In this document: positions 9,180-59,345 of the stretch, one piece after another
How positions within the stretch are numbered: position 1 is the first letter of the stretch
Layout: every line of letters starts with the position of its first letter
Source of the DNA: Felis catus
Lineage: Eukaryota
Assembly (NCBI RefSeq): GCF_018350175.1
Contig: NC_058368.1
Span: 30,134,001-30,194,000 of the forward strand
DNA length: 60,000 bases
Direction: 5' to 3'
Notes under the pieces: generated by a model
What the model saw: only the letters and a program-made list of their open reading frames with translations
What the model was told of the DNA's origin: nothing
The model's database searches: none
Translations under genes and position numbers: made by a program

Positions 9180-9360
9180 TTATTATTTAACACTTACTTT
9201 GAGAAAGAGGAGGGGAGGGGCAGAGAGAGAGGGAGAGAGACTTCCAAGCAGGCTCCGCGCTGTCAGCGCAGAGCCTGATTCTGGCTCGAACGCACGAAAC
9301 GTGAGATCATGACCTGAGCCGAGACCAAGAGTCAGAGGCTCAACCGACTCAGGAACCCCC
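9180..9360 (-). mobile_element. Can-SINE (SINEC, older feliform type)
   Basis: Reverse tRNA-derived body gtgagatcatgacctgagccgag with a GA-rich tract. Confidence 0.88.
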
Positions 9361-9420
9361 AAATAAATATATTACTAATAGGTGTTAAGTTTATGGATTA
9401 AAAGAGAATGGGGTGCGGTT

Positions 9421-9702
9421 TTCCATAAGAGATTCTTAAATACAGAGAAGAACCTGAGGGTTGCTGGAGGGGTGCTGGGTGGAGGGATGGGCTAAATGGG
9501 TGATGGGCATTAAGGAGGGTACTTGTTGGGATGAGCACTGGGTGTTATATGTAAATCATGAATCACTCAATTCTACTGAGATCATTAATACACTGTATGT
9601 TAACTAACTTGGATTTAAATAAAATTTAAAAATTAAAAAAATGAAAAAAAAGTAAAGTAATACAAGAGTACTGAGCACCCCTCCTCCAAAAGAAAAAAAA
9701 AA
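9421..9702 (+). mobile_element. 5'-truncated carnivore L1 3' end with double A-tail
   Basis: L1_Carn-type 3'UTR (gagggttgctggagggg...gggatgagcactgggtgttatatgta), aataaa, and two A-rich tails; imperfect flanking repeat at 9400-9414 and 9703-9717. Confidence 0.88.
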
Positions 9703-11392
9703 AAAAGACAATGGAGTAAATCCTGAAGTCAAGCAGGAACACTTGAGAATTCTATAGCCATCGCCCATTCACTGTGAAGGGTTGGATGGTTAAATTGACC
9801 TGGGAGATTTAAAAGCGTACAGCACGTTGTCCTTCAGGAATAGATGGGGCGAGCAGATGAAGTATTGTCCTGCTGTATTTTGCATTGGTCAGGCACTCTG
9901 CTCTCAGGCTGAGAAGGGACCTCAAATCCCTCCTCCAGCCTCCTTTGATGAGGTTTCTGGGAGAGACAGAAGCTATTTTGTAAAGCTGTCAGCTGTCCTG
10001 AATCAGGGAAATAGCTAAAGCAGCCAGGAACAAGAGAAACAGATAAGAGGTGAATTCTCAGGAACGAGGGGGAGCCTTGTCTGCCTTGGATTAAAAGCAG
10101 AAGGGAAGAGGATTTTGGAAGGAGGGGCTGAGTCGACTGATGGAATCTTCAGCTGCAGGCTGACAGCAGTGTTACAGAGACAAAATGAGTCAACAAAGAT
10201 ATCCAGTGGTTGGTTGAGAGACAAAGGACAAGGGACGGATAGGTGCAGCTGGATGCAAAACGTTTCATGTTGGGGTGGCTGCATTTATCAGGGAGGGTGA
10301 GCTGGAGGGAAAAGGCGAAAGATAAATGAATCAAACTTTCTGTTCCTGCATGTTGGGCCCTGTTAAGTAGGACATTCTTTTGTTTCCACCAGTTGGTGAC
10401 TTAATCAGGTCCCATGGGGAAGCTGAAAGACTGGTATAGGATCTTGGAAAGATGTGCACTTCTCCCAGTCAGGGCTGGGTATAACGGCTCATGATCTGAC
10501 AACCCATCTGATACACTTGACATCCCCTGACACATCTAATGACAAAGAGCTGCAATTAAAAACATTTAAAAAACCCATCTGGAAAAGGGAAAAACACACA
10601 CAATGGCCATTGCCCATAGCATCTCCATAGTGTCCTCAAAACATCTACTCCAACGAACTAGTCTACTAGGTCTCTGTAACAGGCTCTGTGCCTGTCCTTC
10701 TCCACAACTTGTTCACATCACTCCCAGGGTTTGTGTGTCTTTGGCAGTTCTGGCTGCTTGTGATTGTACCCGGAAACTCTTGAGATCGTTTCTTGTTTGC
10801 GCTTGATACAACTTTCTCTTTGTCATTTGGCACTTGTGACCTTCTCTGAACTCTGATGGTTTTATTTTTTAAATGTTTCATTATATTCTTCTACAAAGCT
10901 GTGAGCTTTATCGTATTACCAATATTTGATCCAATATCTGTTGGTAAAGGCCCCGAAAGTGCTTTGACTACTGTGAGCGTGAGCGTCTGTGTAGAGTGGG
11001 GACAGAGGTTCAGCTAAGAGGGAGAGAGAGGAAGATAAAATAAGGCACAGATAAAAAGTTTCTTCTCGATCTTTATTCTTTTATTCTCTTCTTGCTTTGC
11101 TACAATCTCTGGATGGGGGGCAGGTTTTCTCTCTACAGGGTGATGAGAATACAAACTATGATCCTTGAGCCAATGACTGAAGTCAAGCACCAAAGTCAGT
11201 TTCGTTGGCTCACTTGGGGTTTGAGACATCCCCGAAACAAAAAGGTAAGGTATTTTTAATTATGCATTGATTTACTGTCCTTCATGCAGCTAGAATAATA
11301 AAATCAGCAATTTAAAAACTAGTCTTACGTGGTATTTTAAGATTATATAGTTTTGACGATATGTTTATTAACATAATGATCCTATGGGAAAC

Positions 11393-11601
11393 TTTTTTTT
11401 TTTTTAAAGTTTATTTATTTTTGGGACAGAGAGAGCATGAACGGGGGAGGGACAGAGAGAGAGGGAGACACAGAATCGGAAACAGGCTCCAGGCTCTGAG
11501 CCATCAGCCCAGAGCCCGACGCGGGGCTCGAACTCACGGACCGCGAGATCGTGACCTGGCTGAAGTCGGACGCTTAACCGACTGCGCCACCCAGGCGCCC
11601 C
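11393..11601 (-). mobile_element. Young feline SINEC_Fc
   Basis: CpG-intact body ending ccaggcgcccc; TSD ctatgggaaacttttt at 11382-11397 and 11602-11617. Confidence 0.96.
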
Positions 11602-14600
11602 CTATGGGAAACTTTTTCTAAGAGAAAATTGTATCATTTAAATCCTTGTTTTACGTACAGGGGAATTTGTGATTAGTATTGATACTCTATCATCGTTCTC
11701 TCTGATTTTCTCTAGGTTAAAGCACTTAAAGAGTTGATAAAACATCATTTGTTTCTATGAGATGCTTGTAGACAGTATTTTGGCTGACTTTAGGGCTGAA
11801 TTATTTTCCCTGAAGTCATTTCACAAAAAGGGCCAGCAATTTGCTGATAAGTTTTCTTATAAATGACTACACAGTGAAGACATACTAACACATTGATTAC
11901 ACAATGGAGTAATAGGAATGAGATAATGGTACTTCTTATGTGATGACTTAAAACAATTTCTCTGTTTTGGGGGCTCATACTCCTAAAGATTAGTTTTTTC
12001 AAGGTATGATTTTTAAAAAGAAAAGACATCCAGCTGTTAGGTAAATTTGTTTTCTTTCAAACAGTCTTCATAGCTTCAGTTTCTGGAACTTAACTCCTTG
12101 AAGACAGCAACATTGCATGCGATAATATTTTGCTCGTTCGCCTATAAGATGTTTGTTCAGTTGAGAAATGAAAATGGGTCTCAGTATACTATGTAGAGTG
12201 ATTTGTTCTAAATGGCACAAAAATGGTTTCTGGGCCAGGAAAGTATTAGTTCAAGGTCCTGTGAAAGTTGATGCTTATTCTGATGCATGGACACCATGGT
12301 CTAGTGAAATCTGCACATTAGGGACTTTCCTATAGCTCATTCCCGCGCCCTCCAACATATGTCATTAGTTTCACATAATAGGGAAGAGGAAATATGCAAA
12401 GGCACAGACACTATTCTGAATTAAGAGACCGATTTTTCCCCATGTTTACGATGAAAATTTGTTTATGTACAGTGTGCTTTTGTGTAAAGGGACACTCTGG
12501 TGTTATGTGCTCAGCAAAACAAAATATTCCCTTGAAATGATTAGAATGCAAATGCTGTTTTCTAGATCTGGTTTCCTGGCATTTTGAGGGGGGGGTGGCA
12601 GATGCTAATATATCTGGTGCTTTTGTTTTAGAAACAAAAGTAAACTGTAGGGAGTTTACCAAAATCCTGCCACGACACCCCCTTTAAAACCAAACCGAGC
12701 AAGGGAACCAAATTGCTGCTTTATCCACATTTTGGTCATCCCGGGGCGGTGGTAGTCCTCTGCTCCCATTGTTTGTTTTGCTTCATGTTTGACTCCGACA
12801 GAGAACAGAGCTACATTTTATGGACTTACGGTTTGGCAATATGCTGGCAAATGGGAAAACAAGCAACATAAACCAAATTTCTGCCACAATGCTTTTAATA
12901 TTGAGACAGACTTTTATCTAACAGAGCCAACAGAATGGAACTTGAGAGCACCCGCAGCTCAGGGCTGTAAACACAGCTTCCTGATGACACATCCCTGGGG
13001 GGGGACAGATCATACAGTTTCTATATTATGTGGCTTGTCATTCTACTGGCACAGAACTGATTTTCGCCTCAGAAAATGTCTCTTTCCTGAAACTCCAGCT
13101 GTCCTTCATTCATAAAGCAGCGTTTTAATAAGGTGGTTGTTTACTAGGAAAACAATGCTAATGTTAATAATGAATCACTAACAATATAGCATATTCCTTA
13201 TCGAAGATGGTCTACTTGTTGCCAAACAGCTGGAGGAAACGCGGGGGAAAATGCAATCGAGCATTTAAACATCATAGCTGGATGTTTCCAAACATAAGTA
13301 TCCAGATGCTTAGCATTGTGGAGGTAATGTGTTTGATTGCTTGCCTTTTTCATATTTTATCCGGATCTTTTGATGTTCTGTGGATAGAGTCATGACTATT
13401 CATTTTCAATATGCTGAGCAGTTTTCGCTCATCATGAATGGCGACAATAATGCTGAAGACTGGCAGAGGCCAAGCCTGGCAGAGATTGCTGGAGATGAGG
13501 GAGAAGAGGAAGAAATGAGACTCAGACTGTGGTTAAATGGGTCCCTCTCCTGGCTAATGTGTATGGAAGCATGTGCCTTTTAAACGGCATCAGCTCAATC
13601 AGGTTTCAAGCTTCAGTTAAGGGGAATGTAGGAATTAAGAAGCTGGATGGAGGGTCAGATTCTCTTGTTTTCCTTGAGACCCAGAGGCTGAATAACCAGG
13701 CCCTTCTTCAGGATACTCACTGCCAAGAAAGAAAGCTAACTGATTCTATGCCCGTGAGGATACTGGCTTAACAAGAATCTGGTCCAGCTAAACTATAGTA
13801 GAGTCGCTCCCTTCCTCAGACTGATGCCTCATCAGGCAAAATTAAAACTCTACAGTAAACAAGATGAAGTACTTTCTCTTTTTAGGATCTCAGAGTACCC
13901 AGCCCAAATCAATTCATGCTTCCTACTGCAAACTTCTCCGACATCGGGTTATCGGTACTTATAATTAGAGTCATTGCCAAATGTTCCACTAAATTAAAAT
14001 TCCTGCAAATTAATTATCTCATCAAAGGTGGCTCAGTTTCAGAACTGGGTTCGTAAATCCTGGCACTAAAATAGACGCAACCTTCTCCTAAGAGTGAAAG
14101 AAAAAAAAAATAGTCATTTACTGACATGTCCCTGCAGGAAACAATAACATTACAGATCATGTAGGAGCCAAGAATAGCCGGGGTATATTAATAACTCAGT
14201 CTGTTCCCTGATTTTATTCAAGATGACTGGTTAAAGAACACTGCACTGATGATGACTCCATGGCATGAGGAAGAATGTCATCATTAACATGTGGACCGTT
14301 TGGCATTTAGAACATTTCACACATAAAGAGAACTCAACACAAGACTATTTACTGTGCTTTAGACAGATGGTTTAATGTTTCTTTAGCCTTCAGCCTATCA
14401 GGCCACCCATGGTTTTCTTCAGCCAAGGGCTTTTTAGAAATAATTGGTCTCTAGCAATTTTCTAACAAGACTGACTGCGATCTATTTCCCTAAATCTTTT
14501 TCCTACCCTTAACTATCCCTTACAGTGGTTTGTGGCTGACAAACCTCCCTGACTGACACTGATTCCTCACATATAAGTAATTACGGACATAAAAGGAGAT

Positions 14601-15278
14601 GAAGGGGCTGAAATCTCATCATTAATGGTTTCTTTGCTACAGAAAAGCTATTTAGAAACGATTACTTCGGAAAACAGTTCTTCCCTGATTAGACGTTGCC
14701 TGACCCTGGAGAAGCTGTTCCCCCAGAATCTTTCAATACAGGAATTGATAACCCCACGTAGATGGATAACTGTGAGTGGCAAAAGATGCATACAGGCGTT
14801 GGTTTAAAAATGGTAGAGAAGAGTAATTGTGTCTCCGTCTGAGGAATATGTAAATGTGTTTAGAAGGGATACAGAGGCTGCAGATTCCCTGCTCCTGCCA
14901 TCAAAGTGGAAATCACTCACACTGGAAAAGCAAGCGTGTGCATTCTTACAGTGCAAACGTCTGTAGGACTCTTGATCCCCTGCACTTCCCTGGCCACAGT
15001 TCAGTTTTCCAGGCCCTTCTGCCAGCTCTTTTAGGGAACCACGTGACCTAAGGCCTGGAGACTCTACAGACTGGCCCAGAAGGATGGATGCTTGTTTGCA
15101 CATTCTTCTCTATGTAACCTCCCCAGTAAGGTTCAGAAGAGGCAAACTTAGGCCTGGAGCACAGAAAAGTGATGACACAGCAGAGAGGGTTTAGCGATCC
15201 GATGTATTTAGGAGTGCAAGTGTCTCCTGACTGCCTGCAGGAGAGGGCTTGTGGGACTGGAAGTCTCAGAGGGAACTT

Positions 15279-15323
15279 CTGATTGGCTTTTTTTCTCTTT
15301 AAGGGACAATGACGTCTCATTGG
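15279..15323 (+). promoter_or_regulatory. Candidate proximal promoter of the protocadherin pseudogene (reverse CCAAT boxes, CRE-like site)
   Basis: ctgattggct (15279-15288, reverse complement AGCCAATCAG), TGACGTC (15310-15316) and a second ATTGG (15319-15323) just upstream of the putative ancestral ATG at 15350. Motif evidence only. Confidence 0.35.
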
Positions 15324-15530
15324 AAGCTCAGATTTCCCGCTGACACTTAATGCTGGGCCTGACTGGAATCCTTGCTGGTTCTGTGGCTGCAGCTGGTGTC
15401 TGGGTTTTGCACTGCAACTGTCAGCTTTCCGCACCTATGAGGAAAAGGGGCCCACGGTACCGACATCGGTGGTCTGTCTGACCATGGCTTGTTTAATTCC
15501 CAGCTCGAAGTGCCAAGCCAGTTCTGTTTC

Positions 15531-16437
15531 ATGAAGTTCAACAGCTCGCTGCTCCGAGTGCGCGAGGGCGACGGGCAGCTGACCGTCGGGGACGCGGGCC
15601 TGGACCGCGAGCGGCTGTGTGGCCAGGCACCACAGTGCGTGCTGGCCTTCGACGTGGTCAGCTTCTCACAGGAGCAGTTCCGGCTGATACACGTGGAGGT
15701 GGAGGTGAGGGACATCAACGATCACGCGCCGCGCTTTCCCCGGGCCCAGATCCCCGTGGAGGTGTCCGAGGGCGCGGCTGTGGGCACGCGCATCCCGCTG
15801 GAGGTGCCGGTGGACGAGGACGTGGGAGCCAACGGGCTGCAGAGCGTGCGCCTGGCCGAGCCTCACAGCCCCTTCCGCGTGGAGCTGCAGACGCGCGCGG
15901 ACGGCGCCCAGTGCGCGGACCTGGTGCTGCTGCAGGAGCTGGACCGCGAGAGCCAGGCCGCCTACAGCCTGGAGCTAGTGGCCCAGGACGGCGGCCGCCC
16001 GCCGCGCTCCGCCACTGCCGCCCTCAGCGTGCGAGTGCTGGACGCCAACGACCACAGCCCGGCCTTCCCGCAGGGCGCCGTGGCCGAGGTGGAGCTGGCG
16101 GAGGACGCGCCCGTGGGCTCCCTGCTGCTGGACCTGGACGCAGCCGACCCCGACGAGGGCCCCAACGGCGACGTGGTGTTTGCCTTCGGTGCCCGCACCC
16201 CGCCCGAGGCGCGCCGCCTCTTCCGCCTGGACCCGCGCTCGGGCCGCCTCACCCTGGCAGGACCCGTGGACTACGAGCGCCAGGACACCTATGAGCTAGA
16301 CGTGCGGGCCCAGGACCGCGGTCCCGGGCCTCGGGCCTCCACCTGCAAAGTCATCGTGCGCATCCGCGACGTCAATGACAACGCTCCGGACATCACCATC
16401 ACCCCGCTGGCCGGCCCGGGCGCGCCTGCCGCCTCTC

Positions 16438-16471
<34 letters not shown>

Positions 16472-16622
16472 TGCTCTCGGGGGTGCGGACGCGACCTCGC
16501 CGACCGGACCTGGAACGCCGGAGGCCGGCGCCATCTCGCTGGTGCAGAGGGGGCGGCGCGCGAGAGCCTGGTGGCGCTGGTCAGCACCTCGGACAGAGAC
16601 TCGGGCGCCAATGGGCAGGTGA
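15531..16622 (+). CDS. Residual open frame of the pseudogene: PCDH8-like EC1(part)-EC3 plus poly-Ala, ending in a frameshifted tail (363 aa from the first in-frame ATG, no signal peptide)
   Basis: [36 protein letters not shown]...DVNDNAPDI is almost identical to mammalian PCDH8 as I recall it; homology moves to another frame after ~16545. Translation not demonstrated. Confidence 0.5.
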
Positions 16623-16930
16623 GCTGCGCCCTCTACGGGCAGGAGCATTTCCGGCTGCAGCCGGCCTACGCGGGCAGCTACCTGGTGGTGACCGCGGCGT
16701 CCCTGAACCGCGAGCGCATCGCTGAGTACAACCTGACGCTGGTGGCCGAGGACAGAGGCGCGCCCCCTCTACGTAGGGCGCGCGTGAGCGACGAGAGCGA
16801 CAAAGCGCCACTCTTCACGCGACCGGTCTAAGACGTGTCAGTGAGGGAGGACAACCCGCCTGGCGCCTACTTGGGCCGCGAAGGCCAGGTCACCTGCCGA
16901 CTGCTGGAGGCCGAAGAGGGTCGCGCCCAG
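15540..16930. promoter_or_regulatory. CpG island over pseudogene exon 1
   Basis: Visibly very high GC and CpG density, with a sharp left edge near 15540. Confidence 0.85.
16440..16475 (+). repeat. (GCC)10(GCT)2 trinucleotide repeat encoding 12 Ala
   Basis: Read directly from the sequence. Confidence 0.95.
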
Positions 16931-18284
16931 GACGCTGTGTCCCCCTACATCTCTGTGGACCCTATTACTGGGAAGCTGTGTGCACAACGGTGCTCTGATC
17001 GCAAGTAACTGGCTGAGCTGCAGCTGGGGCTGGAAGCTCTCGACGGCGGCTCTATGCAGCTCTGGGGCTGGGCCGTGGTGTGCCTGCATGTGGAGGACCA
17101 GAACGGGCACTCACTGGTCACGCTGCCAGAACGGCTGGTCACACTGCCACTCTTCAATGGCTCAGCCCAGCTGCCTCTGCTTCAGGGCGCGCGGCTGGGC
17201 TACCTGGTGACCCAAATGCACACGAAGGCCCCAACACAGAGCTAATTTCCACCGTAGCGGCGGCGGCCCCGCGGCGCTAGCGCCGCACCCGTTCACGGGT
17301 GAGCTGTCTTTTCAGCGCCGCTTGTCCCCACAGCCCACCAACCAGCTGACAGCGGTCGTCATGGTGCGGGACCCAGGCCAGTGGGCCTTTATCGCGCACC
17401 GCCACTTTGCTCCTAGTGCCCGCGGATTTGGCGCCACCTGGCGGAGAAGTGATGCTGGTGCCGCCTTCGCCGCGGCCGCCGCCAAAAGAGGGAGGGTAGG
17501 GACGCCCCTGGAGTCGCACAGCGCAGAGAGCAGGGCGACAGCCTGGCTTCCTGGTTGTCTTGGCAGGTGTTTTGGCTAGCGGCTGTGGCCTTCTGCTGGC
17601 GGCCATTGCCATCGAGACTTGTTCCAGCCAAGGCGAGGCCAGGACGCGGAAGAAGAAGCTTCGTGGGCATAGCTTGAGCAGGTACCACGCGAGGAGTGGC
17701 CAGGCTGGTCCAAGTCGCAGAGCATCGGGGGCTGACTCTGGGGGCTTTGAGTTGAGGTTCTTCGGGGAGACACTGGCCCTTTCCGTTTACACAGAGGCCC
17801 AGGAGGGCGAGGCTGCGGAGATTTCCCGGTCTGGGGGTAGTGGGGTGTTCTTGTGCTCCTCCCTTCGAAAGAGGAGTGGGATCCTGTGGGCCCTGGTAAA
17901 GTACCCCAGCAGTTTTAGGGCCCCTCATGAACGGTTAGTCGATTTTCCTGCCCAGACGTTAGGAAAATTCAGAGCCTGATCTGGTCTGGGACTTCAAAGG
18001 ACTGAGTTTTCCGGACTTTTTATTTTTTATTTGAGAGGAAAATTTCTTCACAGATGAAGGCAGAAGGAGGCATGGTGGTCATGTTTCGAGGAGGCCCACG
18101 TCTCTTTGTGCTGTTTTTGCCCCTGCTAACTTCCTTCTGGGTCCAGTTGGAACATCTTCGTCCCTCAGGGTTTAAATGCTATCTTTCTGAAGCACTCCAG
18201 AGGAGGGATATTGTGCCCTGTCTGGCAGCTTTGATATCTGAGCGTGAAAAATTAACTGCTGCTCTCACCCCTCTTTTTAAATAG

Positions 18285-18352
18285 GGTTCAGGCTCAGGTC
18301 CTTTTCATTCCCCATCCCTGTGTGGAGAGGGTAAATCTGCTGCGAGTTTAAG
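18285..18352 (+). pseudogene. Pseudogene exon 2 (68 nt)
   Basis: Pyrimidine tract plus TAG acceptor (AG 18283-18284), open frame GSGSGPFHSPSLCGEGKSAASL, donor AG|GTAATT; its phase-2 end matches the next exon. Confidence 0.6.
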
Positions 18353-18447
18353 GTAATTTCAGAGTACGTACGGCTCTGTCTAAGCGACGTGTTTGACGTT
18401 TTGTACGTTTATGGATAACAGAGTGAATCTGTCCTTTTCACTCCCAG

Positions 18448-18583
18448 TACACATTCAAATCCAGATGAATTTAGTGAGAAAGATAGCGGAAGAGGAGACA
18501 GTGAATCGAATGACAGCAGTTCTGACATCAGTATAGAGCGGGCTTGAAGAAAGCGTCTTTTCCAGTGATTGCGAAGCGAGAGG
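18448..18583 (+). pseudogene. Pseudogene exon 3 carrying the delta-protocadherin CM1 motif
   Basis: Acceptor ccttttcactcccag, translation THSNPDEFSEKDSGRGDSESNDSSSDISIE then frameshift to GLKKASFPVIAKRE, donor G|GTAAGT at 18584. Compare PCDH8 [28 protein letters not shown]. Confidence 0.85.
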
Positions 18584-19534
18584 GTAAGTTCAAACCTGTG
18601 ACTTTGAAGCTCTCCCTCACAAAGCCCTGATAATTCTGGATGCCTGAATGAATTAAAAACAAACAGACAAGTGGTCCGGACTGTGCAGTCATAGAGGGGG
18701 TATGCCGAGTGCTACTGAACAGAGCTAACAATTTTTTTTTTGAACGCTTCTTATTTAGCTGATTCTATGTATTTTGAATACTTTACGCTAACTGACTTAT
18801 TTATTCCCCATAATAAATCCAGTAGGGTAGGGACTTGCCCCAGTGTTGGAAGTAAGGTCTCAGCCCAGGATTCCAGCTATAGATTTCTTCCTCTTAATCA
18901 TCCTATCTAAGTGGCCTCTATTAATGCAAACTATTAAAACACAAAAAATCAGAATATTCTGGTTAGTAATACTAAAATAATTTTGTACCACAGCACTAAG
19001 GAGAACTTCCCACACATGGGGATTTCAGAAGTGGATAGCATATGAATAGGTACATTTTTTTTATAGGTCAGGATGCCATTTGCTGGGAACATATGACTTT
19101 GTGGTTTTCTTCGGCCATGCTTTGTTTGTAGAATCTTGCACCCACACAACATCATGCTATTCAGTCTAGCTCCTGTCATGTCTGGGAATTTCGCTTTAGG
19201 TCAAAATCTCTCTAATGGTGTCTAGTTCTATGGGGGAAAGTTGATTATGGACTTGGTGTTAGTTTCCATGGAAGTGAGCACTAGATCTTTTAGTCCTTCA
19301 AAGCAGATACCTTACTCTCAAAGATGCGTCCTAATGGTATGTCCTCCTGATTCATATATTTCTTCACGTTATGGATATTTTCGCCCTATGTTTGGTTCCT
19401 TCAACATTTTTTTTTTTTTTAAACAAGATGACTTCTAGACGCATCTATATCCTGGTCCCCTTCTGAATGTTCTCTGGTGTGTAAATATCTTTCCTAAAAT
19501 GAGACCCTTAGAGTTGAATACAGAACCATAGAAC

Positions 19535-20888
19535 CAGTCTCTCTCCAGAGCTCCAAACTAATATTCCCCGTTGCTTACTCAATGTCTCCATTTGGGGAAC
19601 TGGTAGACATGCTACATGTTCAGAACTGAAGTCTTGATTTCTGTTCTACAAATTTGTTCTTTCTCTAACGTGTGTGCCTCAGTAAATGACAACTCTGTTC
19701 ACTTAATTTCTTGCCCTGGCCAAAGTCCTTGTGTCATTCTTGATTTGTGTCTTCTCCCACTCAATTTCCAGTCCATCAGCAAATCTGATTAGATTTACTT
19801 CGAAAATATATTCCCAATCTGGGCTCTTCTCACCACCTTCTTTGCTGCTATCCTCCCCAGGCACGATCATCTCTTGCCTGGATAGATCCAAACTGGACTG
19901 TGTTTCCATGCTTGCCCTCCTGCAGTCTGTTTTCCAAATCATATCACATAATTGAGCTCTCCAAAGATTTCTCGCTTAAAATGAAAGCCAAAAATTCTTA
20001 TCATGGCATCCCAATTACTACTGTTGTGTAACAAAATGTAACTCAAAATGTAGCAGTTCGAAACAACAATTTTATTATGCTCATGGATTCAGTGGATCAT
20101 TTTGGACATCTCAAGGTTTAGACACATGTCTGGCATGTGGATTAGGATTATTCAGGGTCTAAGATTGCTTACTTGGGCGTGGGAAGAGGGGCTACATGTG
20201 CCCTTTACATGTGGTTCGATTTTCTGACACCATGGCAGCCATAGGCAAGCATGAATGTTCCTCCAAATAAGATAGAAGTCACATCCTCTTTTATAACTCA
20301 GTCTCTGAAATGACATTGTCATTTATGTTCTACTGGTCCAAGCAGTCTTAAACCCACCCAGATTCAAAGGGAAAGGGAAGAGTCCCCCATCTCTACACTG
20401 AAAAGTTATTAAAGAATTTTGGGGCCATATTTGTAAATAAGCCACACGTGGCCCATAAAGTCTTGTATTATCTGGCCCCTGGTTGCTTCTTCCAAATGAT
20501 TTATTACTCTTCCGCTTGATAATTTGGGTCATTATATTGGCTCTCTTGATTCGTTCTTGAACAAACCAAACATATTTCATCTCAGACCTCAGGGTCTTGC
20601 GATTCCTTCTGCTTGGTATGCTCTTTCTCAAGATATCCATATTGTTTGCATCCTTCCTTCATTTATGCCTGTGTTCAAATGTCTATTTTCTCAAAGAGAT
20701 TTTCCATACCTCAAGCTGTCTCCCCCGGCTGTCACTCTCCACCCTGCTTTATTTTCCTTCATGCCATTTATCACTGCCTGACATTACTTTATGTATTTGT
20801 TTATTATTTGTTCTGTATTCCATGTTGAATCATCAAACCTCAAATATGTACTTAAAAAATGAATGAGTGAATGAATGAATGAATGAAA
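19535..20888 (+). mobile_element. L2 LINE 3' region (L2a-like), interrupted by an MLT1 LTR
   Basis: CT-rich L2 motifs (ctcagggtcttgcgattccttctgcttggtatgctcttt) and a terminal (TGAA)n. Confidence 0.8.
20010..20445 (-). mobile_element. MaLR solo LTR (MLT1-type)
   Basis: Reverse LTR end ctgttgtgtaacaaaa...aaacaacaatttttattatgctcatggattc and acccagattcaaaggga. Confidence 0.7.
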
Positions 20889-21311
20889 GGTATAGTCTAA
20901 CTTATAAATTGCAACTGTATGACCGTTTCTCATGATCATATTGCATTTTAGACTAGGGTAAAATTGCTGGTGTTTTTTTTAGAAGTTCCATTGTGTTGCT
21001 TTCCTTTCTAGAATATTTTAGTGTCATCTCAAAGCTTGAAGGTTTTATAGCAAGTTTATCTTTTCGGATCATTTAATGTTAAATCGTCCTTTTCAAACAA
21101 AGATCAAATTCCTGGAGCTCCTAGTGTTTATTCTCTGTTTAGAGAATTACCAGCTTATTCTTTCCATAACACAGTTCCCTCCTCGTAGTAGTAGGCAGGC
21201 TCTCTGAGTCCCTTGGTAGCTCCAGGTGCTGCTGTGGCCAACCATAAGGTGATTGAAGCAATGCATTCAATGTGGGAGGGTCTAGTCACTTGGTAATAAC
21301 AACCACATTTC

Positions 21312-21531
21312 TTTTTTTTTTTTTATTTTTTTTAACGTTTATTTTTGAGACAGAGAAAGACAGAGCATGAACGGGGGAGGGGCAGAGAGAGAGGGAGACA
21401 CAGAATCGGAAACAGGCTCCAGGCTCTGAGCCATCAGCCCAGAGCCTGACGCGGGGCTCGAACTCACCGACCGCGAGATCCTGACCTGGCTGAAGTCGGA
21501 TGCTCAACCGACTGAGCCACCCAGGCGCCCC
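21312..21531 (-). mobile_element. Feline SINEC_Fc
   Basis: Full SINEC body; TSD ccacatttctt on both sides. Confidence 0.95.
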
Positions 21532-21574
21532 CCACATTTCTTCTTATACTCAACAGCAATGTTTTATTTACTTA

Positions 21575-21830
21575 TTTATTAAACAGTTACACAACACTTA
21601 CTATGTGCCAAGAACTGTGCTAGGTGCTCCATAAATATTAACTCACTTAATCCTCATAATAATGCTTTTAAGCAGGTACCCTCACTTAAGCTCATTTTGC
21701 ATAGGGGGAAACTGAGGTGTAGAGTTGTTAGAGTATTTTGATCAAAACCACCCAGCTGTAAGGGCAGAGGTGGGTTTTCCATTCTGGGAGTCTGGCTCCA
21801 GAGTTCATGCTTTTAATGTTCTGCTGTAGT
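21575..21830 (-). mobile_element. MIR SINE, near full length
   Basis: acttactatgtgccaagaactgtgctaggtgct...gggaaactgaggtgtagag...tctggctccagagttcatgc. Confidence 0.85.
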
Positions 21831-22184
21831 GTATTTTCAGTGGGTTTTTAAATACTTACTTTATGGGTCTTCTAAAGATTTAGGACTGATTTACATTCCT
21901 TGGGATGTTTCTGTCTTTGGCTTTAAGTGAGATGTTCTGATTTATGGCTTGGTTTATACTCCAGCTCTCTGCTGCATTTTCTTGTAAAACGTTTAGTGGG
22001 ATTATTGAAAGGGTGACACATGGGTGATGGCAAGATAATTGAATTAGATGTTGATAGCTTGGGTTAAAACATTTAGTGAAGTTATTTTTATTAATTTTTC
22101 ATCTCATTCTTAATAGTTAATGCAGAGAATAAATGGATTAATAAATACGCTGATATTCTTCAGAAATTAGCTTTATATATTTAT

Positions 22185-22801
22185 TTATTTTCCTACAAGT
22201 TTTTATTTAAATTCTGGTTAGTTAACATGCGGTATAATATTAGTTTCACGTGTAGGATTTAGTGATTCATCATTTACATACAATACCACATTACAGGTGC
22301 CCTCCTTTTTTTTAATGTTTATTTTTGAGAGATAGAGAGAGTGAGCTGGGAAGGGGCAGAGAGAGAGAGAGAGAGCGAGCAGGAGAAAGGGTCCGAATCA
22401 GGCTCTGTGCTGACAGCAGAGAGCCCCATGTGGGGATAGAACTCACAAGCCATGAGATCAAGACCTGAGCTGAAGCCGGATACTCAAGCAGTGAGCCACC
22501 CGAGGAGCCCCACAAGTGCCCTCCTAAACACGCATCACCCATTTAACCCATCTCACCCCCAACTCCCTCCAGCAACCCTCAGTTTGTTCTCTATGGTTGA
22601 GAGTGTGCTTTATGATTTGCCTGTCTCTTACTTTTATTCTTCCTAGGTTCATCTATTTTGTTTCTTAAATTCCACATATGAGTGAAATCAAATATTTGTC
22701 TTTCTTTGACGTATTTCACTTAGCATAATACACTCTAGCTTCATCCATGTCATTGCAAATGGCTACAGTTTTCTTTTTGATGGCTGAGTAATATTCCATT
22801 C

Positions 22802-22846
<45 letters not shown>

Positions 22847-23155
22847 ATATGTATGTATATATATATGCCACATATTCTTTATCCATTCATCAGTAGATGG
22901 ACATTTGGGCTCTTTCCATAATTTGGCTATTGTTGATAGTGCTGCTATAAACATCAGGGTGCATGTATCCCTTCAAATCAGTATTTTTGTACCCTTTGGG
23001 TAAATACCTAGTAGTGCAATTGCTGGATCATAGGGTAGTTCTATTTTTAACTTTCTGAGGAACCTCCATACTGTTTTCCAGAGTGGCTGCACCAGTTTGC
23101 ATTCCCACCAACAGTGCAAGAGGATTCCCCTTCCTCCACATCCTCACCAACACCT
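22185..23155 (-). mobile_element. Carnivore L1 3' end containing a nested SINEC (~22305-22512) and (TG)n (~22804-22845)
   Basis: Reverse strand encodes MFIAALSTIAKLWKEPKCPSTDEWIK (ORF2 C-terminus) followed by the 3'UTR; the SINE is flanked by aca(g/a)gtgccctcct. Confidence 0.92.
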
Positions 23156-23453
23156 ATTGAGACACTTCAGTTTAGATTGTAATTTTTACCATTCCTCCCA
23201 CGAAAGCTATATTAGAAATTCCGGCAAACAATTTAATTTAGCTGCTTGAATTTTATTTCCATTTCATTTCATCAGTGTACCAGCAGGTGGAGGTACAAGT
23301 CATTGACAGAAGATCCAAAGGAAGAAAAATAAATACATAAACGACTAAAAAACTAGTCCCTGAACAACTGAATATTGTTTGCATTTTGAAGCATATTGCC
23401 AAATAGCATTCTGACTTTTTAAATATTTCACACGACTCCATTTTATTTCCAAG

Positions 23454-23821
23454 TTGCTTCCGATCATTCGGAATGAAAAACATTTAGGGATCCTGAAAGA
23501 TTCATCGAGGAATCTCAAAGCAGCAGGACTTTCATCACCTCATGAAAATAGCCACGGGATTGCACTTTCTTCAAGTATTTTTACCCTCACATTCCCCAGC
23601 TGAGAAATATGAATTTCCAACGAGTCTACTCAGAACTCAAAAGAGGTTATTTTCGAGCCTGTGAATCCCAAAGTGAAGGGTTGCAAAGTGTGTATGGCAG
23701 AGTTCAAACCTGCAGGCCAGCCCTGTCGCCTCCCCCTATCCTCAGACAGAATGATGAATTAAATCACCCTTCAGTGGATGGATCACCTTCACATACTTCA
23801 GAAATCGCCACTTCACCCTGA
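23454..23821 (+). pseudogene. Pseudogene terminal exon remnant (cytoplasmic tail)
   Basis: Acceptor ttttatttccaag at 23441-23453; a phase-1 join is in frame with ...KRGYFRACESQSEGLQSVYGRV...LSPP...HTSEIATSP*. This recalls PCDH8 VGLQSVYEKV...LLSPP and the PAPC terminus HPSEIATTF*. In-frame stops occur in the 5' part. Confidence 0.7.
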
Positions 23822-32684: not shown

Positions 32685-32731
<47 letters not shown>

Positions 32732-34099: not shown

Positions 34100-34310
34100 A
34101 GAAAATTTTTTTAAACGTTTATTTATTTTGGAGAGAGGCACAGAGTGTGAGTCGGGGAGGGGCAGAGAGAGGGAGACACAGAATCCGAAGCAGGCTCTAG
34201 GCTCTAAGCTGTCAGCACAGAGCCCGATGCGGGGCTTGAACCCACAAACCATGAGATCATGACCTGAGCCGAAGTCGGACACTTAACTGACGGCGCCCCC
34301 CAGGTGCTCC
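34100..34310 (-). mobile_element. Can-SINE (SINEC)
   Basis: Full reverse body; imperfect TSD taccat(cg/ta)taaccat. Confidence 0.93.
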
Positions 34311-34490
34311 TACCATTATAACCATTTTTAAGTGTGCAGTACAGTAGTATTCTGCTATTTCTTAAAAAGTCTACTTTGTCTGATGTTAGTGTAGCCCACA
34401 GATTTCTTTCAGTGAGTATGTGCCTGGCATAACTGCTTTCCTTTTCTTATTTCACTATTTTTGTGTTCATGTATTAAAAGTACGTCTGTT

Positions 34491-34710
34491 GGGGCGCCTG
34501 GGTGGCGCAGTCGGTTAAGCGTCCGACTTCAGCCAGGTCACGATCTCGCGGTCCGTGAGTTCGAGCCCCGCGTCAGGCTCTGGGCTGATGGCTCGGAGCC
34601 TGGAGCCTGTTTCCGATTCTGTGTCTCCCTCTCTCTCTGCCCCTCCCCCGTTCATGCTCTGTCTCTCTCTGTCCCCAAAAATAAATAAACGTTGAAAAAA
34701 AACATTAAAA
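34491..34710 (+). mobile_element. Young feline SINEC_Fc
   Basis: CpG-intact body; perfect TSD aaaagtacgtctgt at 34476-34489 and 34711-34724, preceded by TT/AAAA. Confidence 0.96.
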
Positions 34711-35190
34711 AAAAGTACGTCTGTCATAAGCAGCATAGATTTCTGAAAATCTAGTCTGAAAATTTTAGTTTTAGATTTTTTAGCTTATGTATATTGATGA
34801 AATTGCTATTTCATGAGCTTATGTCCTACTATTTTACTATTGATTTCCTTCATTAATTTTTCCTCTTTCATGCCTTCTTTTGAACTAATCAAGTTTTTAA
34901 TTTATTACTATACCATTTTCCTCTTTTTATTTATTTGCCTTTGGTTATAAATTATTTTACTGTTCTTTTAGTGTTTGCCTCGGGGATTTCAATATATGCA
35001 CTAGACTTACCAGAATCTATTTTGAATGAATACTTGTTATCATTTCCTGGAAAATGTAAGAATGGAGAACAGTTTGCCTTGTTACCTCTTGTGCTATTGT
35101 CATATATTTTAAGTCTACGTATATTTTACACTTCCTTAGATAATATTCTTATTGTTTTATGTAGTCAATAGTTATTTAGTTTGACATTCA

Positions 35191-35419: not shown

Positions 35420-35659
35420 TAGTTTGACATTCTTATTTATCCTCTGTTATTCTTCAAACTTTCTTTTACTTCCATGCTTTCACCTGGGATCATTCTCTTC
35501 TTCCTGAAGAGTTCAGTCTTTACTCTGCATCTGCTGGTTATGAATTCTCTGTATTTAATTGATCTGAAAACATCTTTTTTTCTTTTTCATTAAAAAGAAC
35601 TTTACCAAAGCATTACATACTTATGGGAAAGTGCACACATAATAAGAATACAGTGCCAT

Positions 35660-35870
35660 GGGGCGCCTGGGTGGCTCAGTTGGTTAGGCGGCCGACTTTG
35701 GCTGGGGTCATGATCTCGCGGTCCGTGAGTTCGAGCCCCGCGTTGGGCTCTGTGCTGACAGCTCAGAGCCTGGAACCTGTTTCGGATTCTGTGTCTCCCT
35801 CTCTCTGACCCTCCCCCGTTCATGCTCTGTCTCTCTCTGTCTCAAAAAATAAATAAACGTTAAAAAAAAA
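35660..35870 (+). mobile_element. Feline SINEC_Fc
   Basis: TSD aagaatacagtgccat at 35644-35659 and 35871-35886. Confidence 0.95.
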
Positions 35871-36289
35871 AAGAATACAGTGCCATGATTTTTCACAAAT
35901 GGGATATACCTGTGTAACCAGGGCCCAGCTCGAGAAAGAGAATGTGACCGGCCTTCCAGGAGCCCTTCATTGCTCCTCTCCACAGCTATTCCCACCCAAG
36001 GGTGTCCGCTTTCCTGATTCCTAACATCATAAATTACTTTTGACTGTTTCTGCATTTTCTGTCTATGGGATCATGTGTTACGTGCTGTTTTGTGATTCAC
36101 TTCTTTTACTCAGCCACGATTTTGACGTTCATGCCTGTTGCCACGTGTAGTTATGGAGAATGGATGCTATCCTGTATAGTATTGCGTTGTATGGATACAC
36201 CAATGTTCTTTATCTCTTTTACTGTTGATGGGCATTTGGATTGCCAATTTTGGTGGATTACATATAGCGCAGCTATGAATATTTTAACA

Positions 36290-48154: not shown

Positions 48155-48298
48155 GAAAGAGAAAGGAAGGAAGGAAGGAAGGAAGGAAGGAAGGAAGGAA
48201 GGAAGGAAGGAAGGAAAAGAAAATGAGAGAGAAAGAGAAAGGAAGGAAGGAAGGAAAAAAGAGAAAGAAAGAGAGAAAGAAAGAAAGAAGGAAAGAAA
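48155..48298 (+). repeat. (GGAA)n / GA-rich simple repeat
   Basis: Read directly; it explains the low-complexity ORFs at 48064-48461. Confidence 0.95.
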
Positions 48299-49170: not shown

Positions 49171-49519
49171 TTGGAATTCTTTCTAAAAATATTGGGAGCC
49201 ACTTTCTCATTTTAATGAACAAAAAAAAGGTTACTTGAAGTCTTTTTGTTGCCTAAAAGATCTCAAACAATCTTTGGGTGTTCATTGGGACATAAGGGAT
49301 TGTTTTTCAGTCAGAGACACATTTAACTGAAAAGAGGTTTAATTTAGCTATCATTTCGTAAGGATTACCACTTAGCAGGTTGGTTTATTTGGGGCCACAC
49401 AGGACTTCTGTACAACTGTTAGTTGGGACTTCCTTGGTTAACTAACAAGAACGGGGATGGGGAAACACCAAACATTTACTAAGAGCCTCTTTTGTGTCAG
49501 CCTGTTTTAAAGTTTTCCT

Positions 49520-49721
49520 CTTAATGTTTGTTTTTGGGAGAGGGAGAAAAAGGGAGAGCACATGTGGGAGAGGTGCAGAGAGAGGGGGACAGAGCATCTG
49601 GAGCAGGCTCCATCCACACTGACAGCAGAGAAGCTTATGTGGGGCTCAAATTCACGGAACCGTGAGATCATGACCTAAGCCAAAGTCTGATGCTTATCTG
49701 ACTGAGCCACCCAGGTGCCCC
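49520..49721 (-). mobile_element. Can-SINE (SINEC, diverged)
   Basis: Reverse body; imperfect TSD tgtg(t/c)cag(c/a)ctgttttaaa. Confidence 0.9.
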
Positions 49722-50209
49722 TGTGCCAGACTGTTTTAAAAACTATTGACCACATCTCCTTCAGTTACCACCATGACTTTGAAGATGGGCAACAACATCT
49801 TCATTTTTATGAAAGAGGAAATAGAACTTTCTACAGAGTTAGTAACAAACTGTCTTTAGATTATAGAAGTGCTGATGATGAACTCAGGCTTCGGGTTTTC
49901 TGACTCCAAAGGCCTTTCTCTTTTCAAACTCACCATGCTGTCTCCATCTGTAAGGGCTCTTTCAATTCAGGATTTCAGACTGGATTTGAAACCAGATAAG
50001 AATCGATAAACACATATAGTCTAGAGCAAAATATTTCCAGCTTATGATAAAAATTGGAGCAAACATACATAATACAGCCAACTGGATATATTCCATAGTA
50101 TGACTTTGTGTTAATTCCAGTCCCTCTTCAGTAAGTGACAACTGAAACTCTTAGCCAAATGTGGCTAAGGGAATTGTGAAGTTTTCAGTCCTTTCCCAGA
50201 TCCTATTTG

Positions 50210-50832: not shown

Positions 50833-51071
50833 TTTTTTTTTTATTTTTTTTAACATTTATTCATTTTGAAAGACATTATTCATTATTCATTTTGAAAGAC
50901 AGAGCACAAATGGGGGAGGGCTAGAGAGAGAGGGAGACACAGAATCTGAAGCAGGTTCCAGGCTCTGAGCTGTCAGCACAGAGCCTGACGTGAGGCTCAA
51001 ACTCAGGGACCGTGAGATCATGACCTGAGCCGAAGTTGGCTGCTTAACTGACTGAGCCACCCAGGCGCCCC
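50833..51071 (-). mobile_element. Can-SINE (SINEC)
   Basis: TSD catattgct(c/t)taattctt; internal duplication of ttattcattttgaaagaca in the tail. Confidence 0.94.
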
Positions 51072-52660: not shown

Positions 52661-54559
52661 TATGATAACTTTCGGTTCTTCTCGTTCTTCCGTGCCATGC
52701 TCTTCCCATGAGTGAATTAGGGAGCATGAGGGCATTCACACGTGCATAGCCGAATGAGAAACTGAAGACAAAACGCGTATGTTAGAACGTCTTCGGCCCC
52801 TTTTATATCCGGGGGCTTTGCTGCTGACGTAGATCGTGACGCTAGAAGGCAGAGCATGGCCATGGAGACCGGGGCCATGAAGGTGGTAGAGGGGAAACAC
52901 TGTAGTTGCTTCCAGGCTAAGAAGGACCCCGGAGGATGCACATGGACCCTGCAGTCCAGCATCCTGGGCATGTGGGTGGAAGAGAGGAAGACAGCCCTCT
53001 CGATGAGCACACCAGGCCAGTTCAAAGGCATCATCACCGTGGCGGTGGTTTTATCCTCATCTATTTGTGACCCTCTGATATGGGAAACAGATCCATTAAA
53101 CCAAATAGGACGAAGCTGCAGAGACTGCCTCGCTGGGATGCGGCCCGTCAGGCTGCCGTCTCCCTGCTGGTGCTAATGGACTGCAGTGCGGAATCCTAAC
53201 CCCCGCGGCCCCGCCGCCCGAACAAGTGCAAGGCTGAGGGCTGCTGAACACCACACGCTTCTCTAATGGATCACAATTACGGAGACAACTGTGCTAAGTA
53301 ACTTTCCACGATTTGCTCCGAAAACTTGCAGTGTGTTCAATAGCCCTCAAAATTTTTCATTTGGAACCTGGGGTGAGGGGGTATGGCAGTGGTGATACCG
53401 AGCTGTGCTAGAATAAATACAGTCAGCTCAAGAGATTTTAGTTTCCCTTTGAAGTGTATAGCGTGTAAAAGAGTTTGGGCTCTTTTAGCTTCATTTGTAT
53501 CTCAAGGTAGCACCTGGCAGGAGAAGGGAGGGAAATTGCAAAGACAGGACAGGTGCTGGAAGGAACGGGATCTTTCACAAAGAAGCAGGCACCCGCCCTT
53601 TTGGGAACAACGCCCTGCGTTTACAAAGCAATGACCTGCCCAGGAATTCTGAGAGGGCTGAGTACAGGAATTGTCCCCTTAGCACCGCCGGTGCTGTGGG
53701 GCCAGGTGCGGAGTGTCAAATACAGTCCCCCAAATCCTGGGGACGAAGCAGGGGATGCCGCTTATCTCCATGGACATCCTCGGGAGGACTCCAGTGCCCC
53801 CGCCCATTGTCTCTGGTGAGTGAATGGAGCTTCAGAGCTCAGATCTCTGAAAAGAAGCGCTAATTATTTACTCCAAATACCGTCCAGAAGCTAACCCAGA
53901 TCTGCAAAGTGCCTCGTGTTATTATCACAACCACCCATTCTCAAGTCGCAGCTTTGCACTTCAGAAATAGGTGAAAATGAGATTGGAGGGAGGTGGCTTC
54001 TTGGGGCTCTCTCCTGGCACCGGTTCCCTGGCTGTGATTTGTCACTCTTCCAGGGGAACGAATGTCAGCACTTCTCTTTCAGGTGACAGGGAAGGGGGAC
54101 TAATGATGGCCTCATTCTCTCTGAGAGGCCCCCGCTGCAGTTAATGAGTGCAGCCCGGTGGCCCGGTGGGGAAGGCTGTGGTTGAAGGTGGACAAAGCAT
54201 TGCTGGGCGTGTGGGGACAAATTTCACGAGTCCAGGAGCAGGCTGAGTGTCTGTAGCTGTCTCCTAGAAGAGCAAAGTTCACTCTTGTAACTCGGGCACC
54301 AGCGGTGGGTTCCTTAACCTCAGGGCTCCTCAGCCCTGTAGAAGGCACCGCGGTTGGTTTATCACACAGTGGGGTGGTGTTGCCCCAAGAGGTTGTTGAT
54401 TTGGGGTTCTCCTTTCGTGGAGGCCAGGGGGAGAAGGAGACTGGGGACATATAAGAACTTCGTCCAGCCTGCTTTGGGCCATGCGTCAGACCCTCAATAG
54501 TCAGAAAACCACTAAAGTCATCTCCCTTCTCATCACCATCGTCCCTTCCAGCTGCCCTG

Positions 54560-54870
54560 CCCGATGCCGCCTCCGTTCAGTGGCCTGTGCTCTTTCCTCC
54601 CCAAAGACAGCCTGCTCTTGAGACACTCCTGGCTCTTTCCTGTCACTTGCGTGGTTCTGGCAGCAGGCAGAGGCCCTCCTCCCTTCTCTTTGAGCTTCCC
54701 TGGATTGTGTCGCCTTCCACACTGTGCTCAAATTATTTATTTACCTGTCTGTCTGCTCTATTGCCTTGTTAACTCTTCTAGAGAAGCACCCATATCTTAT
54801 TTATTTTCTCATCCCCAGGGCCTCCAGACAGGAGACGCTCCCTGAAAGTTTGTGAAAGAACAAACGTGCT
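54560..54870 (+). mobile_element. L2 3' fragment
   Basis: ttatttatttacctgtctgtct...ttatttattttctcatccccagggcc. Confidence 0.5.
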
Positions 54871-56544: not shown

Positions 56545-56695
56545 CGGTCTGTTCTCTTGCTTATGTCTGTGTGACCTTGGACCAGGGACCTTACCCTGGC
56601 AGAGCTCTGACTTCTTCTGTAAAATAAGGACAATCATCACATGCTTAGAGGTTATTCCCAGGGTTAAATGCAATCATACAGAAGTGAAGCATTTC
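56545..56695 (+). mobile_element. MIR fragment
   Basis: ctgtgtgaccttggaccagg...cttctgtaaaataaggacaat...gggttaaatg. Confidence 0.7.
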
Positions 56696-58820: not shown

Positions 58821-59123
58821 TAGATGCTCCCATCTGCAGGAGAGCCTCGTGTGGGCTACCCCAGGGCCTCTGTGCGTGATAAGTGCATTGTGAAAGTCAG
58901 GTATTGTGACCTCTTGTATCTGGCGGGCTGTTCAATAGTTTACATGTAACCCCCGAGTTGAGGGATTCATCCAGTATGGTTTTCTAGACTGTTCTTTAAG
59001 GGGATGAAGTATATATCACTCTCCCATATCAGTGAGGAATCTTGTGGTCACATACACGCATACACAACCCCACGCTGACATGGGAATGGCTTGCCCAAAC
59101 TCTCTTTAAAATAATCTGCTCTT

Positions 59124-59345
59124 GGGGTGCCTGGGTGGCTCAGTCGGTGAAGCGTCTGACTTCGGCTCCAGTCATGATCTCGCGGTTCGTGAGTTCGAGC
59201 CTTGCGTTGGGCTCTGTGCTGACAGCTCAGAGCATGGAGCCTGCTTCACATTCTGTGTCTCCCTCTCCCTGCCGCTCCCCTGCTCATGCTCTGTCTCTGT
59301 CTCTCTCTCTCTCTCAAAAATAAACATTAAAAAATTAAAAATTGC
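59124..59345 (+). mobile_element. Feline SINEC_Fc
   Basis: Full body; flanking repeat ctttaaaat(a/g)atctgctctt. Confidence 0.95.

Follow-up and report, generated by a model that had tools for sequence, protein, structure and literature searches.

The stretch of DNA analyzed here, which we call the window, comprises 60,000 nucleotides of the domestic cat (Felis catus) genome of 2.43 Gb (C1:30134001-30194000) and contains the remains of a protocadherin gene related to PCDH8, an adhesion gene of the brain. We conclude with good confidence that positions 15309-23815 of the window represent a dead, intron-containing ortholog of a gene called PCDH8-like, and that the middle of its exon 1 (15535-16962) acquired PCDH8-type sequence through interlocus gene conversion in at least two events. 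A previous reading made from the letters alone (the sequence-only reading) had proposed a sharp-edged, stratified conversion tract from PCDH8 inside a decayed gene. Our analysis bears out repeated conversion from PCDH8 after pseudogenization, but identifies the host as an old PCDH8-like paralog and not as a decayed PCDH8. All parts of the gene described below lie on the + strand of the window.

A DNA search of the genome with window positions 15531-16545 found a single near-identical twin (99%) at C1:29788522-29789526 on the minus strand, 360 kb away. The same search of the 2.43-Gb genome gave no third copy above 70%, the next matches being at 69-70%. The twin lies inside an uninterrupted frame of 1061 codons encoding PCDH8 and is inverted relative to the copy in the window. 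In the aligned part, the encoded cat PCDH8 protein was 100% identical to the PCDH8 records of the domestic cat and of other felids.

To obtain an identity profile, we globally aligned window positions 14801-18600 with the reverse complement of the PCDH8 locus. Identity to the cat's own PCDH8 was 47% in the 5′ flank (15340-15534; 89/190), rose to 99.4% in the first part of the tract (15535-16544; 998/1004) and 98.3% in its second part (16545-16773; 225/229), fell to 80% in an adjoining older layer (16774-16962; 152/189) and dropped again to 55% at the start of the 3′ flank (16963-17113; 83/151). Beyond 17113 it stayed at 48-53%, for example 48% at 17301-17700 (170/356). The sharp edges described in the sequence-only reading were thus recovered, except that the PCDH8-like part ends at 16962 and not at 16990. 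The steps are statistically distinct, both where the tract meets the 80% layer (Fisher p = 2e-25) and where that layer gives way to the right flank (Fisher p = 6e-7).

The whole tract at 15535..16773 (1239 bp, from the middle of extracellular cadherin repeat 1 [EC1] to EC4) matches the cat's own PCDH8 at 1223 of 1233 aligned bases (99.2%). We assign it to recent conversion from PCDH8 exon 1 on the basis of this identity, its CpG content, the residue I119, the core tree and Pfam matches. Identity in the tract was even across the three PCDH8 codon positions (407/410, 410/412, and 406/411), whereas just beyond the core it was lower at each of them (26/50, 35/50, and 22/51). Because third positions are 99% identical in the tract and match at only 22 of 51 sites outside, protein-level selection does not explain the tract. 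Uniform synonymous divergence along exon 1, the pattern by which selection was to be recognized, was therefore not what the third positions displayed, with 40 of 63 matching in the 80% layer. CpG content followed the same pattern. The observed/expected ratio was 0.99, 0.91, and 0.95 in the three strata (with 136 CpG in the first against 134 in PCDH8), while the 5′ flank reached 0.36 and the 3′ flank 0.70-0.74, so that the full CpG content claimed for the block was confirmed. The G+C content of the tract is 71-74%. Pfam detected cadherin domains in the open frame at 15441-16619 (PF00028 [Cadherin], E = 4e-33; PF08266 [Cadherin_2], E = 7e-10) and in a read-through of 16547-17245 (PF00028, E = 9e-12).

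Ten substitutions, a 1-bp deletion and a repeat that is 6 bp longer set the tract apart from PCDH8; private variants of the pseudogene lie at 16414, 16446-7, 16544/5 (the deletion), 16622, 16642, and 16706. The deletion at 16544..16545 is the sole frame-breaking lesion within the recent tract, and the 393-codon open frame at 15441-16622 leaves register there. Together with the aspartate-to-asparagine change D457N at 16706, it had been noticed correctly from the letters. The Ala/Gly-rich insertion that had been read after EC3 is likewise present, as an alanine-rich linker between EC3 and EC4 whose GCC (Ala) repeat, at 16438..16472 inside the tract, is 6 bp longer than in PCDH8. A Phe codon, F370, which is conserved in 17 of 17 aligned PCDH8 orthologs, is lost there. 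In the older PCDH8-derived layer at 16774..16962 we found the lesions expected from the sequence-only reading, namely two in-frame deletions, of 15 bp at its 5′ edge (16773/16774) and of 30 bp at 16871/16872, and a stop codon (TAA, 16829-16831). The protein encoded by this layer is 77% identical to cat PCDH8, compared to 30% just beyond it.

Several residues indicate the direction of the transfer. The protein sequence shared by the tract and PCDH8 is 98-100% identical to carnivoran PCDH8 orthologs, and the tract has the private residues G361, F370A, S429, Q435, and N457, each of which differs from 17 of 17 orthologs. The cat's own PCDH8 has none of these private states. Because the shared sequence encodes the conserved protein and the private states occur only in the pseudogene, PCDH8 is the donor and was left unchanged by the transfer. 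The tract also encodes I119 (window 15688-15690), a residue private to felids in PCDH8 (I in 8/8 felids, V in 9/9 non-felids), as well as the carnivoran residues S336 and T355. In the 80% layer, one site encodes alanine where 14 of 14 carnivoran PCDH8 have serine and all other mammals aligned have alanine; this single site would fit an event before Carnivora and is a slight hint of its age.

We next examined the sequences on either side of the core. The 5′ end of exon 1 at 15309..15534 (226 bp, running from the ATG to the last codon ahead of the tract, K) is of paralog type and aligned by tblastn with a PCDH8-like protein of a whale. It contains three in-frame stops (TAA 15348-15350, TGA 15360-15362, and TGA 15438-15440), and the alignment with the whale protein runs in a single tblastn frame from 15315, with one extra codon and no frameshifts. 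About three frameshifts had been read upstream of the tract; they arose because this part was compared with PCDH8, which is the wrong reference there. The N-terminal end is 61% identical to whale PCDH8-like (44/72), compared to 31% to cat PCDH8 (8/26). The codon for Q68 of PCDH8 is absent from the cat pseudogene at 15534/15537 and likewise from whale PCDH8-like. This shared loss indicates an old deletion, which now marks the 5′ end of the tract.

The 3′ part of exon 1 at 16963..17877, which corresponds to EC5, EC6, the membrane span and the start of the tail, is also of paralog type, as judged by the match to whale PCDH8-like, HMMER and the flank tree. Residues encoded by 16963-17245 are 60% identical to whale PCDH8-like (52/87) versus 30% to cat PCDH8 (26/87), and those encoded by 17253-17381 are 67% identical to the whale protein (29/43). 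Lesions in this part are the stops TAA 17006-17008, TAA 17243-17245, and TAG 17497-17499, frame changes near 17239-17253 and 17381-17389, and a 15-bp in-frame insertion at about 17080-17110 that reads as a five-codon tandem repeat and occurs in the cat copy only. We observed that the 3′ flank at 16963-17700 (G+C 0.64) is unexpectedly rich in CpG for long-dead sequence, the observed/expected ratio in its surroundings being 0.3-0.4.

Downstream, relics of further exons and the intron between them lie at 18195..18538 (18195-18350 and 18449-18538) and were found by tblastn with the PCDH8-like protein of the koala (46% identity over amino acids 840-885 and 77% over 887-916); they are 70% identical to PCDH8 over 23 amino acids. 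A relic of the last exon at 23477..23815 matches koala PCDH8-like amino acids 939-1054 (tblastn, 38% over 116 amino acids). The separation of these relics by introns indicates an unprocessed pseudogene. Over 15309-17500 we counted at least seven in-frame stops and three frame changes. The flanks have at least six stops and two frame changes, and the protein encoded by the 3′ flank has diverged from whale PCDH8-like by about 40%. The tract, by contrast, has one frameshift and 0.8% divergence, which argues that the gene was already dead at the time of the recent event.

The affinity of the 3′ flank emerged only with sensitive searches. A word-index protein search with the flank gave nothing at E <= 0.001, and exhaustive HMMER was needed. 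Using the read-through translation of 16964-17242, HMMER returned 66 hits at E <= 0.001, several of which are 47-97% identical in one stretch. The names among them include "protocadherin-8-like" of the koala (1055 amino acids), "protocadherin-8-like" of the bighorn sheep (624 amino acids, flagged LOW QUALITY), and human hCG1745487 (530 amino acids). A search with the koala protein identified "protocadherin-8-like" proteins of about 965-1060 amino acids in 10 marsupial species, proteins of about 1000 amino acids in five turtles, four of them annotated "protocadherin-8-like", and a 698-amino-acid model from a baleen whale; the ordinary PCDH8 of the same species was also among the matches. In sheep, whale and human the paralog is represented by broken or truncated models. 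Within the cat genome alone, the best other match of the flank was PCDH8 (E = 0.028), barely ahead of clustered protocadherins (E = 0.066). A tblastx comparison of the two loci was discarded as too noisy, with cross-matches between cadherin repeats and dispersed repeats. Judged from these sequence relationships, the host gene is the pseudogenized ortholog of an old, distinct paralog, PCDH8-like, and not a decayed duplicate of PCDH8. The placental "PCDH8 pseudogenes" are best read as relics of this separate gene, which is still predicted at full length in marsupials and turtles. We do not claim mammalian PCDH8-like as the ortholog of frog pcdh8l/PCNS, and the relevant passages of the Xenopus paper are silent on mammalian orthology.

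The mosaic structure is not confined to the cat. The comparisons across species used predicted proteins from automatic gene models, one of them the sheep model flagged as low quality. In five same-species marsupial pairs and the whale, PCDH8-like and PCDH8 are 32-37% identical over the first 64 residues, a part that the sheep model lacks. When the sheep is included, identity is 78-100% over core residues 67-557 (measured in three segments) and 30-41% over residues 558-700. The proteins of cat, whale, sheep and human, together with seven from marsupials and two from turtles, switch between the two types at identical alignment columns, just before "FNSS" on the 5′ side and just after "VSVDP" on the 3′ side. 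The cat tract begins at the 5′ switch and the 80% layer finishes at the 3′ switch.

Phylogenetic trees of the two regions gave different groupings. In the tree of the 3′ flank (93 columns), PCDH8 formed a clade with a Shimodaira-Hasegawa-like approximate likelihood ratio test (SH-aLRT) support of 99, and the cat copy grouped with whale, sheep, and human PCDH8-like, next to the marsupial ones. Placement of the cat copy with carnivoran PCDH8 was rejected by the approximately unbiased (AU) test (p = 3e-77). In the core tree (residues 67-404), the cat copy grouped with felid PCDH8 (SH-aLRT 84), whale PCDH8-like with whale PCDH8 (94), and sheep PCDH8-like with sheep PCDH8 (90), and the seven marsupial PCDH8-like proteins formed a clade nested in marsupial PCDH8 (99). 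Monophyly of the paralogs in the core was rejected for all 14 sequences (AU p = 1e-11), for the 12 mammalian ones (2e-44), for the five placental ones (2e-4), and for cat, whale and sheep (1e-4). The conflict foreseen in the sequence-only reading, with copies clustering by lineage within the tract but by locus in the flank, therefore holds at the protein level in both trees and in the AU tests, apart from one AU test of the flank that is described below.

We also counted the core residues that are private to the PCDH8 of one lineage among nine placental sequences and are found in the paralog of that same lineage. This was the case for the single such residue of the cat family (1/1), for seven of eight in the whale, and for all five alignable residues in the sheep, where two more could not be aligned. 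Private residues were shared across lineages in none of the 12 comparisons. As far as predicted protein sequences can tell, these results support independent overwriting at least in the stem of the marsupials and in the lineages leading to cat, whale and sheep.

The human lineage behaves differently. In the cat, an exon encoding an olfactomedin domain (OLF) at C1:30013220 lies between PCDH8 (29.788 Mb) and the pseudogene (30.149 Mb). In passages of two papers (PMC8803333, PMC12274101), human PCDH8P1 appears, as a locus name only, beside OLFM4 on chromosome 13. The order of PCDH8, olfactomedin gene and pseudogene is the same in both species, and, judged by position, the cat locus probably corresponds to human PCDH8P1. 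A protein predicted in human, hCG1745487 (P0197), only putatively the product of PCDH8P1, has paralog-type flanks and the same mosaic as the cat copy. Its core is much more decayed than that of the cat, with 71-85% protein identity to human PCDH8, and has none of the three comparable human-private PCDH8 residues (0/3 alignable), so that by private residues no recent event was seen in the human lineage. An unnamed protein of 815 amino acids (P0157) has the same mosaic with a core that is likewise much more decayed, 59-77% identical to human PCDH8. In the lineages of hCG1745487 and P0157, conversion appears to have ceased long ago.

How many conversion events are recorded in the cat copy depends on how the strata are read. 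Of the stratified ages proposed from the letters, two layers are firm, but the further split at 16545 is weak. The parts 15535-16544 and 16545-16773 (6 versus 4 substitutions) differ with Fisher p = 0.096, or 0.047 without the repeat, and a max-chi-square scan placed the best break at 16414 (permutation p = 0.045). We therefore did not accept a third, youngest layer extending from 15535 to about 16414 or 16544 (p = 0.045-0.096), and a third age is no more than suggested. For a rough clock we assumed a mammalian rate of 1-2.2e-9 per site per year. At this rate, the six pseudogene-derived changes in 1233 bp would date the recent event to roughly 2-5 million years ago, and the first and second codon positions, which differ by 11%, would place the old layer at roughly 50-120 million years.

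We considered whether there was one conversion only, with 16774-16962 being a conserved part of the paralog that protein selection held similar to PCDH8 while the gene was alive. Codon positions in this layer lend some support to the idea, since first and second positions are 89% identical (56/63 each) and third positions 63%, which is only modestly above the 46 of 93 in the adjacent 3′ flank (16963-17245). In addition, both deletions are in frame and a conserved cadherin linker motif is present. We did not, however, take the third-position excess as proof of past selection: CpG hypermutability could give the same ratio, and third positions may mutate faster in CpG-rich sequence. Selection on the protein would also have to account for an abrupt fall in protein identity, from 77% to 30%, within one and the same cadherin repeat, and for its position, which is the same alignment column in each of the 14 paralog proteins examined. 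Moreover, the whale and sheep paralogs have lineage-private PCDH8 residues in this stretch, up to the boundary (whale T485L and A495E), which makes the stretch demonstrably convertible, and the marsupial paralog cores nest in marsupial PCDH8, as described above. We consider a single conversion improbable. Transfer in the opposite direction, or in both, is mechanistically possible, and the felid I119 might then be of paralog origin: it is private to felids among the 17 PCDH8 orthologs, yet occurs in each of the seven PCDH8-like proteins from marsupials. The near-complete identity of the shared protein to other carnivoran PCDH8, the absence of the five private residues and of the frameshift from PCDH8, and V119 in the whale, sheep, and human paralogs speak against this, and we give a pseudogene donor almost no credence. 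The match at I119 between felid PCDH8 and marsupial PCDH8-like may be a coincidence or reflect an old transfer.

The GC-richness of the tract and its 99% twin 360 kb away raise the question of an assembly or polishing artefact, in which reads of PCDH8 exon 1 were placed on the pseudogene or used to correct it. The open frame of the tract also had no exact copy in the protein collection with either of two start choices; of the frames looked up exactly, only a 63-amino-acid flank frame covering the 15-bp insertion was found, on 10 short public contigs. A 97% identical variant of this flank frame occurs on another contig. Pasted PCDH8 reads would, however, not create the 10 substitutions, the 1-bp deletion and the 6-bp repeat change, with five altered residues that are invariant in 17 of 17 orthologs. 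Raw data point in the same direction: in 20 of the 24 runs listed (12 studies), 0.93-0.97 of 262 sampled 31-mers from window 15000-17500 were present. Without the tract, 274 private and 60 junction 31-mers out of 2471 (13.5%) would be lost, which sets a ceiling of about 0.865, as calculated from all 31-mers and not from the sampled set. The same mosaic with lineage-private residues in the whale and sheep models, and an older version of it in seven marsupial proteins, likewise speak against an artefact, which we regard as very unlikely.

We thus return to repeated conversion of a dead PCDH8-like gene by PCDH8, against which several points must be weighed. According to passages of a review on conversion, the process operates mainly above about 80% identity (PMC3924818). 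Between sequences 360 kb apart whose flanks are about 50% identical, one would expect conversion only rarely. The third-position excess in the 80% layer could mean that its divergence arose partly under protein constraint. For the junctions at 15535 and 16773, the evidence consists of the assembly and, indirectly, of the word shares. The grouping of the cat copy with felid PCDH8 has an SH-aLRT of only 84 and involves one private residue, and in the flank the AU test did not reject a topology in which a branch has the cat copy and every PCDH8 on the same side (p = 0.148). The AU groups were chosen with the trees already known, and the support from other species stands at the protein level throughout, on automatic models.

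These data can be accommodated in the following model. PCDH8 exon 1, located 360 kb away in inverted orientation on the same chromosome, would have served as a repair template for the pseudogene. An old event would have extended to the 3′ boundary of the core at 16962 and left the sequence that is now 80% identical, and a recent event within the cat family would have overwritten 15535-16773, now 99.2% identical. The recent tract ends at indel heterologies, the missing Q68 codon on one side and the cat-specific 15-bp deletion at 16773/16774 on the other, and the heteroduplex may have stopped there. Since then, the pseudogene would have acquired at least six private base changes, the 1-bp deletion and the repeat expansion. 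In other mammals, this core appears to have been overwritten independently between the same two boundaries. The ends may have diverged first, confining conversion to the sequence between them, and each conversion could restore sufficient identity for the next one.

On this basis we favor, with moderate confidence, a broader interpretation in which PCDH8 and its neighboring paralog have undergone episodic concerted evolution of a single exon core of about 1.4 kb with fixed boundaries since before the split of marsupials and placentals. Its separate events would have taken place in the stem of the marsupials and on the branches leading to cat, whale, and sheep, and the process would have continued in placentals after the paralog had died. 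The pseudogene would be repeatedly rejuvenated, including its CpG content, and would be a possible donor of defective sequence to PCDH8. The turtle copies raise the possibility that the boundaries may be as old as the first amniotes.

Elsewhere in the window we noted a 326-codon open frame on the - strand at 1589-2569, which by eye resembles ORF1 of LINE-1 (long interspersed nuclear element 1). Copies of a dispersed short repeat were detected by tblastx at 11381-11617, 21308-21531, 34132-34739, 35638-35875, 49514-49735, 50885-51071, 57994-58221, and 59122-59340, and the same repeat occurs beside PCDH8 (9220-9475 on the reverse complement of L006); it is probably a short interspersed nuclear element (SINE). 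Microsatellites are present at 22804-22845, (TG)21, at 32688-32727, (TC)20, and at 48163-48297, an imperfect (AAGG)n with 33.5 copies. A region of about 5 kb at 53001-58000 has an elevated G+C content of 0.50-0.54, and we saw no long open frame of obvious meaning in it.

The locus provides a clean natural example of conversion that persists between very old paralogs, where a core keeps itself convertible while its flanks diverge. There are also practical consequences for the genomics of the cat family. Short reads of PCDH8 exon 1 and of the pseudogene are expected to cross-map over 1.2 kb, and variant calls in this region need care. The frameshift and the five altered conserved residues of the pseudogene are candidates for harmful back-conversion into PCDH8.

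That a working gene can convert its pseudogene paralog, and vice versa, is textbook knowledge, and regional conversion in the clustered protocadherins was reportedly described by Noonan et al. in 2004. Full-text searches turned up no paper that connects PCDH8, a pseudogene and gene conversion, whereas the name PCDH8P1 occurs in seven. Non-allelic conversion between gene and pseudogene in mammals is represented by CYP21A2/CYP21A1P, as outlined in parts of PMC3843699, and a minimal efficient processing segment (MEPS) of about 200 bp of identical sequence is given for yeast in a passage of Mansai, Kado and Innan (2011, PMC3924818). As far as these excerpts describe them, gene-to-pseudogene conversions of this type (CYP21A2/CYP21A1P; PMC3924818) resemble the cat case in being a non-reciprocal, bounded, kilobase-scale copy on one chromosome, with an abrupt step that includes silent sites and with a pseudogene as partner. 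Relative to the CYP21A2/CYP21A1P type as portrayed there, the cat partners differ in being 360 kb apart and inverted, in having flanks of about 50% rather than >90% identity, and in that the visible direction is into the pseudogene.

Closer in sequence are the clustered protocadherins, whose exons in fugu show region-restricted, lineage-specific conversion according to passages of PMC1852091. Going by the same passages, the two cases have in common the superfamily, the homogenization of part of a large ectodomain exon, lineage specificity, repetition and identity at silent sites. The clustered genes, in turn, are portrayed there as tandem arrays of many functional variable exons in which conversion affects mostly EC4-EC6 or the 3′ part (PMC1852091), whereas in the cat an intact and a dead gene are involved, both delta-type and non-clustered, and the converted part covers EC1 to EC5. 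The process itself is thus already known; less ordinary are the apparent age and the fixed boundaries of the convertible core, which apparently persisted past the death of one partner.

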